Source: Patescibacteria group bacterium (GTDB taxonomy: Bacteria > Patescibacteriota > Microgenomatia > UBA1406 > HO2-37-13b). Taken from it: a DNA stretch of 58,414 nt. Both the position numbers and the translations under genes were made by a program. The notes beneath the pieces were generated by a model. The model was not told where the DNA came from, did no database searches, and worked only from the letters and a program-made list of their open reading frames with translations. The DNA lies in the NCBI GenBank assembly GCA_035289305.1, contig DATDXN010000015.1, positions 1 to 58,414 on the forward strand, given 5' to 3'. Shown piece by piece: positions 1,882 to 47,973 of this stretch (positions are counted from its first letter, which is position 1; each line of letters begins with the position of its first letter).

Positions 1882-2559
1882 ATGATCTATCTTTTTTGCG
1901 GAGATGATACGGCCGCCTCACGAAATGCTTTTCATCTCGCGAAGGTCGCATACAAACAGAAAAACTATGAGGTGATCGCAATTGGCGAAAAAAACATCAC
2001 CGAGCTTGAAAAATGGCTCGTCAACAGCCAAAATCTCTTTTGGCAAAACAGGATTTTTGCGGGAGAGAATCTGCTCTCAAAAAAAGAATACCGTGATATT
2101 TTCAAAAATTATGATACAAAAGATGAAAACGCTATCATTCTTCTCTGGGATGAGGAGATTGATGAGCGAAGCGCAAAACGCATCTTCAAAACAGCGCGTC
2201 TTTCCATATCAAAACTGCCCTCAACAATCTTTAAGTTTTTGGATGCCGTATATCCTTCAAACAAAACCCCTGCATTGCGTCTTCTGCAGGATATTTCGCA
2301 GTCGATTGATGAACACATCATATTGTATATGTTGCAAAAAAGAATTCGCGAACTGATCGCAGTTACCACCGGAAAAACACCGGAGAAATTGCAGCAGTGG
2401 CAGATCGCAAAGCTCTCTATGCAGAGCAAAAAATGGAAGGAGCAGCAATTGTTGTCATTTTATGATGCGTTGTATAGAATTGAAGTATATGCGAAAACAA
2501 ATACTCATTACTATTCTATCAAAAAGTCACTTGACATTGCACTGTGCTACTCTATATGA
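1882..2559 (+). CDS. holA: DNA polymerase III delta subunit-like protein (short form)
   Basis: MIYLFCGDD N-terminus, IFKFLDAV and LYRIEVYAKT C-terminal pattern; 225 aa. Confidence 0.7.
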   Translation: MIYLFCGDDTAASRNAFHLAKVAYKQKNYEVIAIGEKNITELEKWLVNSQNLFWQNRIFAGENLLSKKEYRDIFKNYDTKDENAIILLWDEEIDERSAKRIFKTARLSISKLPSTIFKFLDAVYPSNKTPALRLLQDISQSIDEHIILYMLQKRIRELIAVTTGKTPEKLQQWQIAKLSMQSKKWKEQQLLSFYDALYRIEVYAKTNTHYYSIKKSLDIALCYSI

Positions 2560-2584
2560 TAGCATCATACAAAAATTAAAAGTC

Positions 2585-2603
2585 AACCCCGATAAAATCG
2601 GGG
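2585..2603. repeat. 19-bp micro-palindrome AACCCCGATAAAATCGGGG flanked by TC/TC
   Basis: Seen directly; an 18/19-identical copy lies at 44214-44232 on the minus strand. Confidence 0.8.
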
Positions 2604-2616
2604 TCAAAAGTCAAAA

Positions 2617-4017
2617 ATGATAAACATTGCCTCACAGATTTTCAAAAGCTACGATATTCGCGGTACCTACCCTGATCAAATTCATGAGAAGAACATTGTT
2701 GCTATTGTCAATGCTATTCACGCTTTTTTTCTTGAGCAAGCAAAAAAAGAGAGTATTTCTATAGTCGTTGGCCGCGATATGCGACTATCAGGTCCTTCAC
2801 TGTTTGCAATTGTCAAAAAAACACTTGTTGATGCTGGAGCACAGGTGATTGATATCGGACTCGTGGCAACACCCACGTTTTATTTTACCGTCCAAACATA
2901 TAGGTATGATGCGGGTATTCAACTTTCTGCATCTCATAATCCCCCTCAATACAACGGCTTGAAACTGGTGCAAAATTTTGGCGGCAGACTTCTCAAGATT
3001 GGTAAATCAACCGGAATGGAAAAGATCAAGGAATATGCCCTTGCCGGAAAAAAAGCTAGTTCATCACAGAAAGGCACTGTGACTGCAAAAAAAAATATCC
3101 TTACTCATGAAATAGAGGAAGTAAAAAAAATGGTAGATTTTTCTGGTATTTTACCGCTTAAAGTCGTTGCGGATCCTGCAAATGCCATGGGGTCTCTGTA
3201 TATAGAAGAGCTTTTTAAACATCTGCCCTGTGAGCTCGTAAAAATGAATTTTGAGCTTGATGGTTCTTTTCCCGCTCACCAACCAGATCCTTTGGTCAAA
3301 GCAAATCTCAAGAGTTTGCAGCAGAAAGTACGTGAGGAGCGAGCAGATATTGGACTTGCTCCAGACGGAGACGGAGACCGACTTTTTTTCGTCGATGAAA
3401 AGGGGCAGATCGTTTCTGCCTCCTACATCACGGCACTTGTGGCGCGAGAACTTTTGAAAAAAACCCCCGGAGCCGCAATTTTATATGATATTCGCTATAC
3501 CAAAACACCTGCGAAAAACGTGAAAAAGTATGGCGGCATTTCTCATATTACCAAAGTTGGCCATGCGTTCATTACAGAAGCCATGCATACACATAAAGCT
3601 CTTTTTGCGGGAGAATCGTCAGGTCATTATTATTTCGCCAAAACTGGCGGTGCCGAGTGGCAACTCCCCGTTATTTTAATCGTATTATCAGTCATATCAA
3701 AGGAAAAAAAACCACTTTCTCTGGTAGTTGAAGAGCTTCGGGGGAGTTTTGAATCAGGTGAATATAATTTCAAAACAGATACAGCGAAGGAGATTTTAGC
3801 AGCGCTGCAGGAGAAATATTGTGATGGTAAAATGGTGACAATTGATGGTGTGGCTGTTGAATATGATACATGGAGATTTGGTGTACGCACCTCAAATACC
3901 GAGCCTCTCATACGACTCAACCTCGAGGCAGATAGTGAGAAGCTTATGGAGGAAAAACGAGATGAGCTTATCAATTTCATTACCCATGCTGGGGCGACTC
4001 TCATGAAGGAGGAGTAA
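2617..4017 (+). CDS. manB: Phosphomannomutase/phosphoglucomutase
   Basis: FKSYDIRG, SASHNP (phosphoserine), PDGDGDR (metal loop) and GESSGH motifs. Confidence 0.92.
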   Translation: MINIASQIFKSYDIRGTYPDQIHEKNIVAIVNAIHAFFLEQAKKESISIVVGRDMRLSGPSLFAIVKKTLVDAGAQVIDIGLVATPTFYFTVQTYRYDAGIQLSASHNPPQYNGLKLVQNFGGRLLKIGKSTGMEKIKEYALAGKKASSSQKGTVTAKKNILTHEIEEVKKMVDFSGILPLKVVADPANAMGSLYIEELFKHLPCELVKMNFELDGSFPAHQPDPLVKANLKSLQQKVREERADIGLAPDGDGDRLFFVDEKGQIVSASYITALVARELLKKTPGAAILYDIRYTKTPAKNVKKYGGISHITKVGHAFITEAMHTHKALFAGESSGHYYFAKTGGAEWQLPVILIVLSVISKEKKPLSLVVEELRGSFESGEYNFKTDTAKEILAALQEKYCDGKMVTIDGVAVEYDTWRFGVRTSNTEPLIRLNLEADSEKLMEEKRDELINFITHAGATLMKEE

Positions 4018-25156: not shown

Positions 25157-25230
25157 CATTTTAAAAAGTACCTGATAGCTTTTCACCTCGGAGGTGCAAT
25201 GAATATAACACCTTGGGGTAAAAAGAAACC

Positions 25231-26106: not shown

Positions 26107-29053
<2,947 letters not shown>

Positions 29054-44189: not shown

Positions 44190-44213
44190 ATAGATATATT
44201 CACCTCCTTTCAA

Positions 44214-44232
44214 CCCCGATTTAATCGGGGTT
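44214..44232. repeat. 19-bp micro-palindrome overlapping the polX stop codon
   Basis: Minus strand TT|AACCCCGATTAAATCGGGG|TT; 18/19 identical to 2585-2603. Confidence 0.8.
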
Positions 44233-46023
44233 AAGCCAGTGTTTTATTTCATTATACCCCATGGTATTGAGTATGTCACTTTTTTTAGCCCAACCTCTCC
44301 GCGCCACTGCCACACCATACAGTATACCCTCCATTTGAGAAACCGCATGAGCATCGGTATTGATGACCATGGTAAGACCCTGATTTACTGCTTGTCTTAC
44401 CAATTCGTCAGGAAGATCTAACCGCCCTGGCCATGAGTTGATTTCAACCGCTATATGTTTCCGCTTACATTCTGTAAAAATTCTCACCCAATCTGCCTCA
44501 ATCTCTTCACGTTTGTGTAAAAGTCGTCCGGTTGGATGTGCGAGAATTTTCACTTTTGGCTGTTGTAAAGCTGTAAGAATTCTTTTTGTCATGTCTGCTT
44601 TTGACATCCTGAAACTACTATGTACCGATACGATGAGAAAATCTATATAAGACATCGTTTCTTCTGGAAGGGCAATTTTTCCGGTAGGAAGAATATCAAC
44701 TTCAAGACTGATGAAAAAATGTAAACGTTTACTTTTTTTGAACAAACTTTTTTGAACAATATATTCCTTTCTTTTCTTCATCAAATTGATAATTTCTGCA
44801 TCAGAATGATTAGTGATGCTGGGATTGTGATCGGCAAAGCCAACATACTCATATCCCAGTTCCTGTGCCTTGTTGAAAATTTCTTCATAGCTATTCTCTC
44901 CCAAATCATGAGATACCTCTAAATTATATGAAGAATGAATATGAAAGTCTCCTCGGATATCTGCGCGAGTTACCAATTGAGGTATTTTTCCCTTACGAGC
45001 TCTCTCAATTTCATCGGTACCTTCTCTGATTTCAGGCGGAATATACTGGAGACCCAAAAACTCATAAAAATCCTTTTCATTCTTAAATATATGTTCTCGG
45101 GTATTTTTGTATTTATTTTTGATTTTCTTAATGCCGTATTCTGATAGCGAGTATCCCTTTTTGATCGCATATTCCCGAAGCTTGATATTATGTTCCTTGC
45201 TTCCGGTGAAATACTGAAGCATTGCGCCATATCGCTCTTTTTCCACAGTGCGTATGTCAATTCGTTTTCCCGAACTTGTGAGAATTGCTGCTTTTTTTTC
45301 GCCTTTTTCCTCAACCGAGGAAACAAATGGACCGGAAACAAAATAATCTATCACATCTTTTGCATGTAATAGAGAGCATATGACTGCTATGTCTATATCC
45401 CCAACGGTGGCGGTCATCCTTCGAAGCGAACCCACCACTTCAGCCTTTTGGACATGCGGATTCAGTCGAAGATAATCAACGATTTCTGCGGCGAGTTCAT
45501 ATGCATATGGTAACGGCATTCGTTCTTTTTTTTGAGATGATCTTTGATGGAGTTCGATTGATCGAAGTATTTCTTCCTGCGATTTTTGGCCAAATGTAGG
45601 AATAGACGCTACTTTATTTTTGAGACATGCCTCATGCAACTGCTTGATAGCTGTATGGGAATCACTGAAGTGCAAAGCCTTGACAAGTTTAAAAGCTTTT
45701 TTTGGGCCAATACCTCCCAAATTCATCAACGTAAACACCGGAGCAGGAATTTTTTTGAGGACGCTTATTAAATATGAACGGTCCTTTTTTTCAAAATACT
45801 CCGCAAGGTGATCGAGAATTGAGGGACCGATACCAGGAACCTGCTGTAATGCACCATTTTCCCACATGTCTTTTAGTTCGCGATTTAGATGGTCAATTAC
45901 GTCTGCGGCACGTTCGTACGCAATGACCCTAAAGTGGTTTTCATCAGTCAAGAGATATACCGCTGCCACATGACGAAGAAGGGTACTTATTTCTTTATTA
46001 GTCATGGTAAGCGATGATACCAT
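44221..46023 (-). CDS. polX: DNA polymerase X with C-terminal PHP domain
   Basis: GSLRR, GDIDI, IDIR and YFTGSKEHN motifs; PHP motifs HIHS, HPTGR and NTDAH. Confidence 0.93.
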
Positions 46024-46834: not shown

Positions 46835-46880
46835 GTCATTCCGAGCGAACCCGCCGATTCGGCGGGGAAGCCGAGGAATC
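46835..46880. repeat. GTCA-type REP-like element with a nested GC palindrome
   Basis: GTCATTCCGAGC-GAA-[CCCGCCGATTCGGCGGG]-GAA-GCCGAGGAATC. Confidence 0.6.
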
Positions 46881-46947
46881 CCTTTTGTAAAATAAAGAAA
46901 GGGATTTATGTAGATGAGCTAAAAGCGCACGAGCTCATAGCTCATGT

Positions 46948-47389: not shown

Positions 47390-47863
47390 TTACTGCCACT
47401 CGACGAAATCGCAACCTACGGCCATGCGATTTTGTGCGTCCCATTTGTTGGTCGAGCATTTTTTCAGACGTTTTCCATTACTGGTCGTGAGCATCACAAG
47501 TTTTGCCCCGCATTTCGGACACTCCTCACCAAGCTCCTCTGTCTTGCCCTTCACCCACTCGACATAGTCGCATCCGGATGCAGTGCGTGTGGCAGCATCC
47601 CATGTACCGGCCGAGCATTTTTTGAGCTTCTTGCCAAATCGCGTCGTTTTTAAAACCAATGGAGAGCCGCATTTGGGGCATTTTTCATCAAGCTCTTGAT
47701 CAGGAGCAGCAAACCACCGCACATACGTACACCCCTCCACTCGCCTGGTAGCCTCATTCCAGCTTCCTTTGGAGCAGCGCTGAAGCTGTTTACCCGAAGG
47801 AGTCGTCGTAACTTCACCCAAAGGAGCACCGCATTGTGGACACGTCGTATCTTTGTCTGACAT
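47390..47863 (-). CDS. Stand-alone protein of three C4 zinc ribbons (topoisomerase I C-terminal type)
   Basis: Three repeats of about 52 aa, each C-x2-C-x17-C-x13-C (CPxCG...CS...W...GCx(Y/F)VxW). Confidence 0.85.
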   Translation of the reverse strand: MSDKDTTCPQCGAPLGEVTTTPSGKQLQRCSKGSWNEATRRVEGCTYVRWFAAPDQELDEKCPKCGSPLVLKTTRFGKKLKKCSAGTWDAATRTASGCDYVEWVKGKTEELGEECPKCGAKLVMLTTSNGKRLKKCSTNKWDAQNRMAVGCDFVEWQ

Positions 47864-47882
47864 ACACTAATATAGAATTGAA

Positions 47883-47901
47883 TTCCGAATTTCTCGGAAT
47901 A
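47883..47901. repeat. 19-bp micro-palindrome with a CCGA-N5-TCGG core
   Basis: Minus strand TT|TATTCCGAGAAATTCGGAA|TT; same 2+6+5+6 geometry as the copies at 2585 and 44214. Confidence 0.55.
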
Positions 47902-47973
47902 AACATATAATGACAGCATTATATACTAAAATTTACCGATATGCATTTGTTATAATTTTCTATGAGAAGACGC

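Follow-up and report, generated by a model that had tools for sequence, protein, structure and literature searches.

The stretch of DNA analysed here (the window; 58,414 nt) is contig C15 of an 897-kb, 36-contig genome with 40% GC (G000), whose host is an ultra-small bacterium, Roizmanbacteria-like to judge by the names of homologues. A 225-aa gene ends at position 2559, upstream of the first site of interest (site 1), and is followed by a phosphomannomutase/phosphoglucomutase gene (2617–4017, plus strand; Pfam PGM_PMM I–IV domains on the identical protein). A promoter-like TTGACA-18-TATGAT sequence with 11 of 12 matches (2531–2560, plus strand) is kept in G008, G016, G001 and L079; site 1 lies downstream of it and thus within the mRNA leader. 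Here an A-rich heptamer array (2571–2619, plus strand) reads AAAAATT, AAAAGTC, a 21-bp unit, AAAAGTC and AAAAATG, with the unit accommodated in phase and the last heptamer containing the ATG at 2617. Site 1 itself is a 17-bp palindrome, CCCCGAT-AAA-ATCGGGG (2587–2603, plus strand), between two identical direct repeats of TCAA, read directly at 2583–2586 and 2604–2607 of the same strand; in full it is AAAAGTCAA-CCCCGATAAAATCGGGG-TCAAAAGTCAAAAATG. The predicted hairpin (−12.3 kcal/mol, z = −4.7) lies 14 nt before the start codon. Deleting the 21 bp from 2585 to 2605 leaves AAAAATT-AAAAGTC-AAAAGTC-AAAAATG, the clean array that a preliminary description of this DNA had expected on removal of the unit. 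Over positions 2570–2625 contig depth rises about fivefold (runs X4, X6, X8 and X9), because contigs of other organisms in the same groundwater/soil samples hold look-alike heptamer-palindrome-heptamer segments, which show 10 differences in 56 positions.

Two further sites had been placed with site 1 under the pattern YYCCGA-N5-TCGGRR, and all three are present at the positions reported for them; the pattern matches three times in the window versus 0.06 expected from shuffles. Site 2 (44210–44234, minus strand; palindrome 44214–44230) reads TCAA + CCCCGATTTAATCGGGG + TTAA in plus-strand letters and is, as described, identical to site 1 at 18 of 19 positions when taken on the minus strand. On that strand it supplies the codons N-P-D and the TAA stop (44223–44221) that end a 600-aa PolX gene, and it directly precedes the Shine-Dalgarno sequence of a LemA-like gene. 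Site 3, TGAA + TTCCGAATTTCTCGGAA + TAAA (47879–47903, minus strand; palindrome 47883–47899), lies 20 nt upstream of a minus-strand 157-aa gene (47390–47863). It matches copies of the form TTCCGAT-TTA-ATCGGAA elsewhere in the genome (C11:5038, C18:5810 and C22:2658) at 15 of 17 positions, the two differences break an inner pair, and its hairpin is no better than those of shuffled sequences (z = −0.9). Its membership of the family described below is therefore probable, as had been proposed, but to judge from its letters it is probably a decayed member rather than a clean copy. The four-nucleotide flanks of the three sites are TCAA/TCAA, TCAA/TTAA and TGAA/TAAA, respectively.

Two other CCGA..TCGG cores that had been thought related do not belong here. 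The one at 46850–46866 (CCCGCCGA-T-TCGGCGGG) is part of another, nested-hairpin repeat, and that at 27243–27259 (GCCTCCGA-A-TCGGAGGC) forms one of the usual helices of the 23S rRNA encoded on the minus strand (26113–29045). The nested hairpin (46838–46884; GTCATTCCGAGCGAA-CCCGCCGATTCGGCGGG-GAAGCCGAGGAATC) starts like the TGTCAT...ATGACA composites with a CCCGAT palindrome that are found in G043, G111 and G147 and belong to a sister family.

The preliminary description read the sites as 19-bp palindromes with 2-bp direct repeats. The 21-bp unit which this implies holds, though in a different register and with 4 nt as the better reading of the repeat: the more economical frame is a perfect 17-bp palindrome, YCCCGAT-NNN-ATCGGGR, with 7-bp arms set 3 bp apart, lying between identical 4-nt direct repeats at T(C/A)AA. 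A perfect 19-bp palindrome of the form A-Y-CCCGAT-NNN-ATCGGG-R-T is present in 19 of 26 copies and corresponds to the earlier 19-mer moved by one base. The enrichment of flank identity which had been predicted is found genome-wide. Identical 4-nt flanks occur in 19 of the 26 copies (TAAA in 11, TCAA in seven and CCAA in one), against a background of 0.8% at random positions, or 2.4% if only pairs of AT-rich flanks are counted. With 6-nt flanks, at least five of the six bases are identical in 14 of 22 copies, compared with 1.1% at random, and when flank partners were permuted among copies the observed mean was reached in 0 of 5000 trials. As an independent test, public metagenome contigs in which only the right flank had been fixed (as GTCAAA) carried TCAA on the left as well in 58 of 101 unique contexts. 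The fixed 17-bp frame is the right one for these comparisons; the 4-nt repeats do not show in a maximal-stem frame, where the first and last of their bases pair with each other. Palindrome and one repeat together make 21 bp. The palindrome stands beside a T(C/A)AA, with the tetranucleotide repeated after it, so each insertion adds exactly this length, and tandem or nested copies are found exactly 21 bp apart at C18:5812/5833, C1:8065/8086 and C16:33077/33098.

The family that includes the three sites is real and has about 30 copies in the genome. The excess was judged by counts at other spacings and with control stems: CCGAT-N3-ATCGG occurs 24 times in the 897 kb, control 5-mer stems occur 0–3 times, and CCGAT/ATCGG at other spacings mostly 0–2 times, with secondary peaks of 5–6 at 4 (six copies), 14 and 24 nt. 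CCCGAT is the top stem among the perfect palindromes of this genome with a 6-bp stem and a 3-nt loop, the broader YYCCGA-N5-TCGGRR has 27 matches genome-wide, and around 30–35 copies are reached once variants with one mismatch, a compensated pair (CCCGAC...GTCGGG) or a 4-nt loop are counted. The half-site hexamer CCCGAT is not enriched (368 observed versus 416 expected in the genome), so the palindrome is the unit; on the same counts, a reading as DNA uptake sequences was dropped. About two-thirds of the copies are intergenic and about one-third lie inside genes, in a genome that is roughly 90% coding. By crude ORF calls, 15 intergenic copies divide into six between divergent genes, eight between co-directional genes and one between convergent genes; copies sit in the groES-groEL and grpE-dnaK spacers, and one precedes an ArsR-type regulator gene by 17 nt. 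Orientation relative to genes in G000 is nine sense to eight antisense (by eye, on 36 contigs with the origin of replication not placed) and, in metagenome ORFs, 29 to 5, a ratio for which stop codons in the TTGA orientation are a confounder. At gathering score, Rfam matched only the 23S rRNA and eight tRNAs across the whole window, leaving the three sites uncovered, and full-text literature searches brought up no account of such repeats for the candidate phyla radiation. A scan of public contigs with CCCCGATNNNATCGGGG (14 specified bases, 596 Gb) was uninformative, the matches listed being chance hits from all phyla.

Among 151 genomes of the order, 59 have the 15-bp core, with copy numbers of 0–30, and one has the reversed control pattern; the core is identical letter for letter in an order where orthologous genes are only about 55–70% identical. 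Copies in G016 also have TCAA/TTGA flanks and lie in phase inside (AAAAGTC)n arrays, and metagenome copies lie in phase within arrays of other A-rich heptamers. Such arrays (AAAAGTC, AAAAATC, AAAATTT and variants) form 5' leaders, as at 2571–2619 of the window and at L005:1260–1350. They look like preferred targets because each heptamer boundary offers a TCAA. A sister family (f2) has the core without direct-repeat flanks, often inside larger TGTCAT...ATGACA inverted repeats, and the 21-bp unit may thus be confined to a single lineage.

Insertion is shown directly by palindromes that one lineage has and others do not at orthologous sites, and the empty sites that had been sought in relatives were found at several loci. 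The site 1 palindrome is absent from the orthologous locus in four relatives. In G008, G016 and G001, which represent three other genera, the gene pair and promoter are the same, with comparable A-rich heptamer leaders that have no palindrome in G016 and G008; L079, an 88%-identical relative, is without a 48-bp block that includes site 1. The site 2 palindrome is found in 0 of 23 family relatives, where PolX ends W-(I/L)-x-x-stop. In the 88% relative, site 2 persists in decayed form (TTGA|TTTTCGATTAAATCGGGA|TTGA) and PolX reads through it in another frame, so that the copy is older than the split of the two species and has been under no strong constraint. The sharpest case is the seryl-tRNA synthetase (SerRS) gene on the minus strand of C21, in which RK-IDPDLVG-VDIEKIL stands in place of RK-------VDIEKIL, the form found in 119 of the 119 closest homologues. 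The insert is seven residues, or exactly 21 bp in frame, and its DNA (ATTGA|CCCCGACTTAGTCGGGG|TTGAT) is a 17-bp palindrome between two copies of TTGA. A leucyl-aminopeptidase loop (TATAAA|TCCCGATTTAATCGGGA|TAAACC) is likewise seven residues longer than in G011; the same loop in G016 holds, instead of the palindrome, a six-unit A-rich heptamer array in frame (L081). The empty-site relatives are distant (66–88% nucleotide identity), and base-exact boundaries come from SerRS only. No presence/absence polymorphism within the population was seen among near-identical protein variants or in the contigs of four runs, although contigs hide rare variants.

The leader of the phosphomannomutase gene differs in length between the window genome and L079. 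At L079:1150–1210 the ATG stands only about 7 nt after the TTGACA-18-TATGAT promoter, compared with a leader of 57 nt in the window genome, and because of this short distance the L079 mRNA is, judging by its sequence, probably leaderless.

Gene-internal copies are translated in all three frames, as PDxIG, TPxxSG and SRxNRD, and the element therefore acts at the level of DNA. A peptide repeat of xPDxIGx heptads was ruled out on the same evidence, together with the many copies that have stops in the PD frame. Taking these observations together, we consider the sites to be copies of a dispersed, non-coding insertion element, a 17-bp palindrome at T(C/A)AA that adds 21 bp each time, and give this reading a probability of roughly three in four. 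The flank repeats and empty sites support the earlier proposal of an ultra-short insertion element, smaller than published REPs (20–40 bp) and MITEs.

The closest competitor is a classical REP-RAYT system, in which the palindromes would be REPs cut and spread by one of two RAYT-like Y1 enzymes, whose gene would be flanked by its own REPs. The window contains no mobiliser, as had been stated, and the suggestion that Y1 genes flanked by the palindromes might be found elsewhere in the genome was borne out for the genes but not for the flanks. G000 has two RAYT-like genes of 223–225 aa (C24:6626–7303 and C34:4979–5650), which score 48 and 43 bits to NF047646, both below its cut-off of 80 bits, and one IS200-type TnpA (C16:103606–104052; 122.6 bits to NF033573). 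The RAYT-like family is common and multi-copy across the order. Nearly every RAYT-like locus examined (about 50) has its own perfect palindrome of 15–25 bp with a 3-nt loop, of the CACC../AACC.. type (e.g. CACCTnnnAGGTG or CAACCTCnGAGGTTG), which is like the present family in build and different from it in sequence. Inverted repeats of about 37 bp with arms YCCGAT ... ATCGGR lie on both sides of the C34 gene, and a RAYT-like gene is present in 22 of 25 genomes with at least three palindrome copies versus 68 of 126 others (Fisher p = 0.0015, not corrected for phylogeny). Against these points, the compact CCCGAT-N3-ATCGGG palindrome flanks none of the roughly 50 RAYT-like loci examined in G000 and the order, including those of palindrome-rich genomes (3 of 3 loci in G016, with 16 copies; 4 of 5 in G043, with 30 copies). 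One copy in G005, also rich in the palindrome, is near a RAYT-like gene, yet outside that gene's own CCCAC..GTGGG repeats. The C34 arms are widely spaced (17–18 nt), and BLAST of the C34 flanks against the genome showed them to be unique, with no further copy; the closest homologues of the C34 gene are in genomes with zero copies of the palindrome, while G008, G051 and G108 carry 3–4 copies and have no RAYT hit. Finally, the palindromes are perfect and have no GTAG or CGTC tag, whereas the E. coli TnpA-REP requires both a tag and a stem mismatch (PMC3333891). On balance, we regard a classical REP-RAYT system as unlikely.

The wider search for a mobiliser gave no other linkage. In G000 the compact palindrome flanks no gene on both sides, no Y1 gene was found beside 118 metagenome copies (835 kb scanned with Y1 queries only), and a multi-copy IS1595-like element of G000 has ends that differ from the palindrome. 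The end hairpins of the IS200-type element (C16:104141–104160 and 103573–103592) are CCCCGACGC-AA-GCGTCGGGG and CCTCGCAGC-AA-GCTGCGAGG, and share only CCCCGA with the palindrome family. The outer 7 bp of the first are the same as in the SerRS copy (CCCCGAC-TAA-GTCGGGG), and some 100 nt beyond this the contig ends in ...CCGAT, which may be coincidence.

Several other repeats came to light in the same genome. The C24 RAYT-like gene (C24:6560–7350, L002) lies directly downstream of the 3' end of a 16S rRNA and is bracketed by CACCCCWGGGGTG palindromes and ACCTTAGG boxes, which form a third palindrome family with five genome copies. At about 25184–25220 of the window, TTCACCTCGGAGGTGCAATGAATATAACACCTTGG represents a second REP-like family (CACCTCSGAGGTG plus GACACCTYGG, five genome copies) and is similar to the repeats on either side of that RAYT-like gene of G016 which is closest to the C34 gene of G000. 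A 13-mer, GGCTCTAGACTAG, has 25 genome copies, mostly 110–130 nt from contig ends (among them C1:608, C1:55456, C2:127, C3:126 and C5:122); it adjoins an IS1595/ISXO2-like transposase fragment (C1:1–582) and looks like the end of a multi-copy IS that fragments the assembly.

It is improbable, by a wider margin still than for REP-RAYT, that the palindromes are operators of a conserved dimeric DNA-binding protein, forming a regulon rather than a set of insertions. In most copies the dyad is perfect about one central base (CCCGATT-N-AATCGGG), the core is letter-identical across the diverged order, and copies in spacers are over-represented where the adjoining genes diverge (6 of 15) and near start codons, one being the copy upstream of the ArsR-type gene. 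All of this would suit an operator, but the one-third of copies within coding sequences, in all three frames, and the exact 21-bp SerRS insertion would not; no dimeric operator needs identical 4-nt direct repeats beside the dyad, and the copies decay, are not conserved in position between genera and number from 0 to 30 among close genomes. That the palindromes are RNA hairpins which arose in place (terminators, processing sites or mRNA stabilisers) and are unrelated by descent is hardly credible, for despite the stability of the site 1 hairpin, the terminator-like score of the site 1 minus strand and the copies between groES/groEL and grpE/dnaK, the stems are identical rather than co-varying, most copies are without a U-tract on the transcribed strand (sites 1 and 2 have no T-run on the gene strand), convergent genes flank only 1 of 15 intergenic copies, orientation is mixed, and the direct-repeat flanks and gene-internal copies are left unexplained.

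For an insertion element of this kind, we favour a mechanism in which the hairpin together with one TCAA would move as single-stranded DNA and be pasted 3' of a matching tetranucleotide. The enzyme would be of the HUH/Y1 type and act in trans, as with IS200/IS605 elements. Transfer of this sort would give an apparent duplication, a strict target and, because each insertion recreates the target, tandem arrays of 21 bp. The data are no less compatible with a staggered 4-bp cut and subsequent fill-in, in which case the repeats would be a true target-site duplication. A paired-end DDE transposase seems unlikely on steric grounds, the two ends being separated by just 3 bp. Since 21 is divisible by three and the unit has no stop in most of its frames, insertions into loops of coding sequences would be tolerated, and this in turn would explain why about one-third of the copies are in genes. 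The site 1 copy now forms a stable predicted hairpin in the mRNA leader and the site 2 copy provides the PolX stop codon; a regulatory effect of either is conjectural.

A more far-reaching version of this proposal can be offered only tentatively, and we think it possible rather than probable. On this view nothing more than a 17-nt hairpin and its 4-nt target would be needed for mobility, and the element would be the smallest transposable DNA known in bacteria. It would move as single-stranded DNA, either through a trans-acting HUH/Y1 enzyme that needs just one hairpin and a tetranucleotide, or without a dedicated transposase, by copying guided by microhomology at TCAA. With a footprint of 21 nt it would become seven-residue loops in essential genes (SerRS, aminopeptidase, PolX and glycosyltransferases) and so continually supply the genome-reduced Patescibacteria with small protein insertions.

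Among known systems, the element is a very small variant of the REP/MITE kind, REP-like in its behaviour and without the tag, size and RAYT features of REPs. Published REPs are 20–40 bp long with a GTAG or CGTC tag, and may be found within genes and provide their stop codons (PMC3733652). Like the REP/BIME repeats of E. coli, Pseudomonas and Stenotrophomonas and their RAYTs (PMC3733652, PMC3333891), the family consists of short, GC-rich palindromes that are high in copy number, mostly intergenic and patchy in distribution, with tandem or paired copies, some copies in genes or providing stop codons, and Y1 genes in the same genome. It differs in that the element is 17–19 bp and perfect rather than an imperfect, tagged repeat of 20–40 nt, has identical tetranucleotide flanks, which REPs do not, places about a third of its copies in coding sequence and, in its compact 3-nt-loop form, flanks none of the RAYT genes examined. 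For the Y1 enzymes of IS200/IS605 elements, a hairpin is the recognition signal and a short adjoining sequence the place of the cut (PMC3333891). This 'peel and paste' system (IS608, ISDra2) inserts next to a specific tetra- or pentanucleotide, to which the fixed T(C/A)AA beside the hairpin would correspond in a derived, PATE-like element; hairpin recognition would be a further likeness, and by the logic of the system an element ending in the tetranucleotide of its target gives the order target-hairpin-target that is seen here. The family differs in having a single hairpin, with no room for guide sequences or a gene.

Bacterial MITEs are about 50–400 bp in length, with separate terminal inverted repeats that are bound by a DDE transposase. 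Like them, the family is non-autonomous and has inverted ends with short direct target repeats on both sides, the apparent target duplication being of fixed length; no autonomous IS with the same ends was found, and its two 7-bp ends, 3 bp apart, are hard to reconcile with a paired-end transposase complex. Rickettsia palindromic elements (RPEs), which PMC3733652 mentions, are about 100–150 bp long and are found in frame in essential genes, to which they add a short peptide. They are thus alike in being palindromic, in-frame insertions in essential protein genes and differ in their greater length; they are not known to have a tetranucleotide repeat. The nearest analogue in kind is provided by organellar hairpin elements, the GC clusters of yeast mitochondria (GC42, GC18), which are short GC hairpins with AG or ACT direct repeats, conserved stems and variable loops, and for which no transposase is known (PMC4478555). 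These too are GC-rich hairpins in AT-rich DNA, with 2–3-nt direct repeats that resemble target duplications and with mergers and tandem arrays; they differ in being organellar and eukaryotic, unrelated in sequence, 18–42 nt or more in length and targeted to AG or ACT.

The element would be among the smallest insertion elements seen in bacteria. If the reading given here is true, a mobile DNA unit can be as little as one 17-nt hairpin and a tetranucleotide, which makes the family a test of the minimal recognition needs of a transposase, and the palindromes would serve as a simple marker, open to counting, of past insertions in uncultured Patescibacteria. For annotation, they explain odd seven-residue inserts and some shifted gene ends in such genomes. 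A non-coding repeat here adds seven-residue loops, a new C-terminus and 5'-leader hairpins to the housekeeping genes of genomes that are supposedly streamlined.
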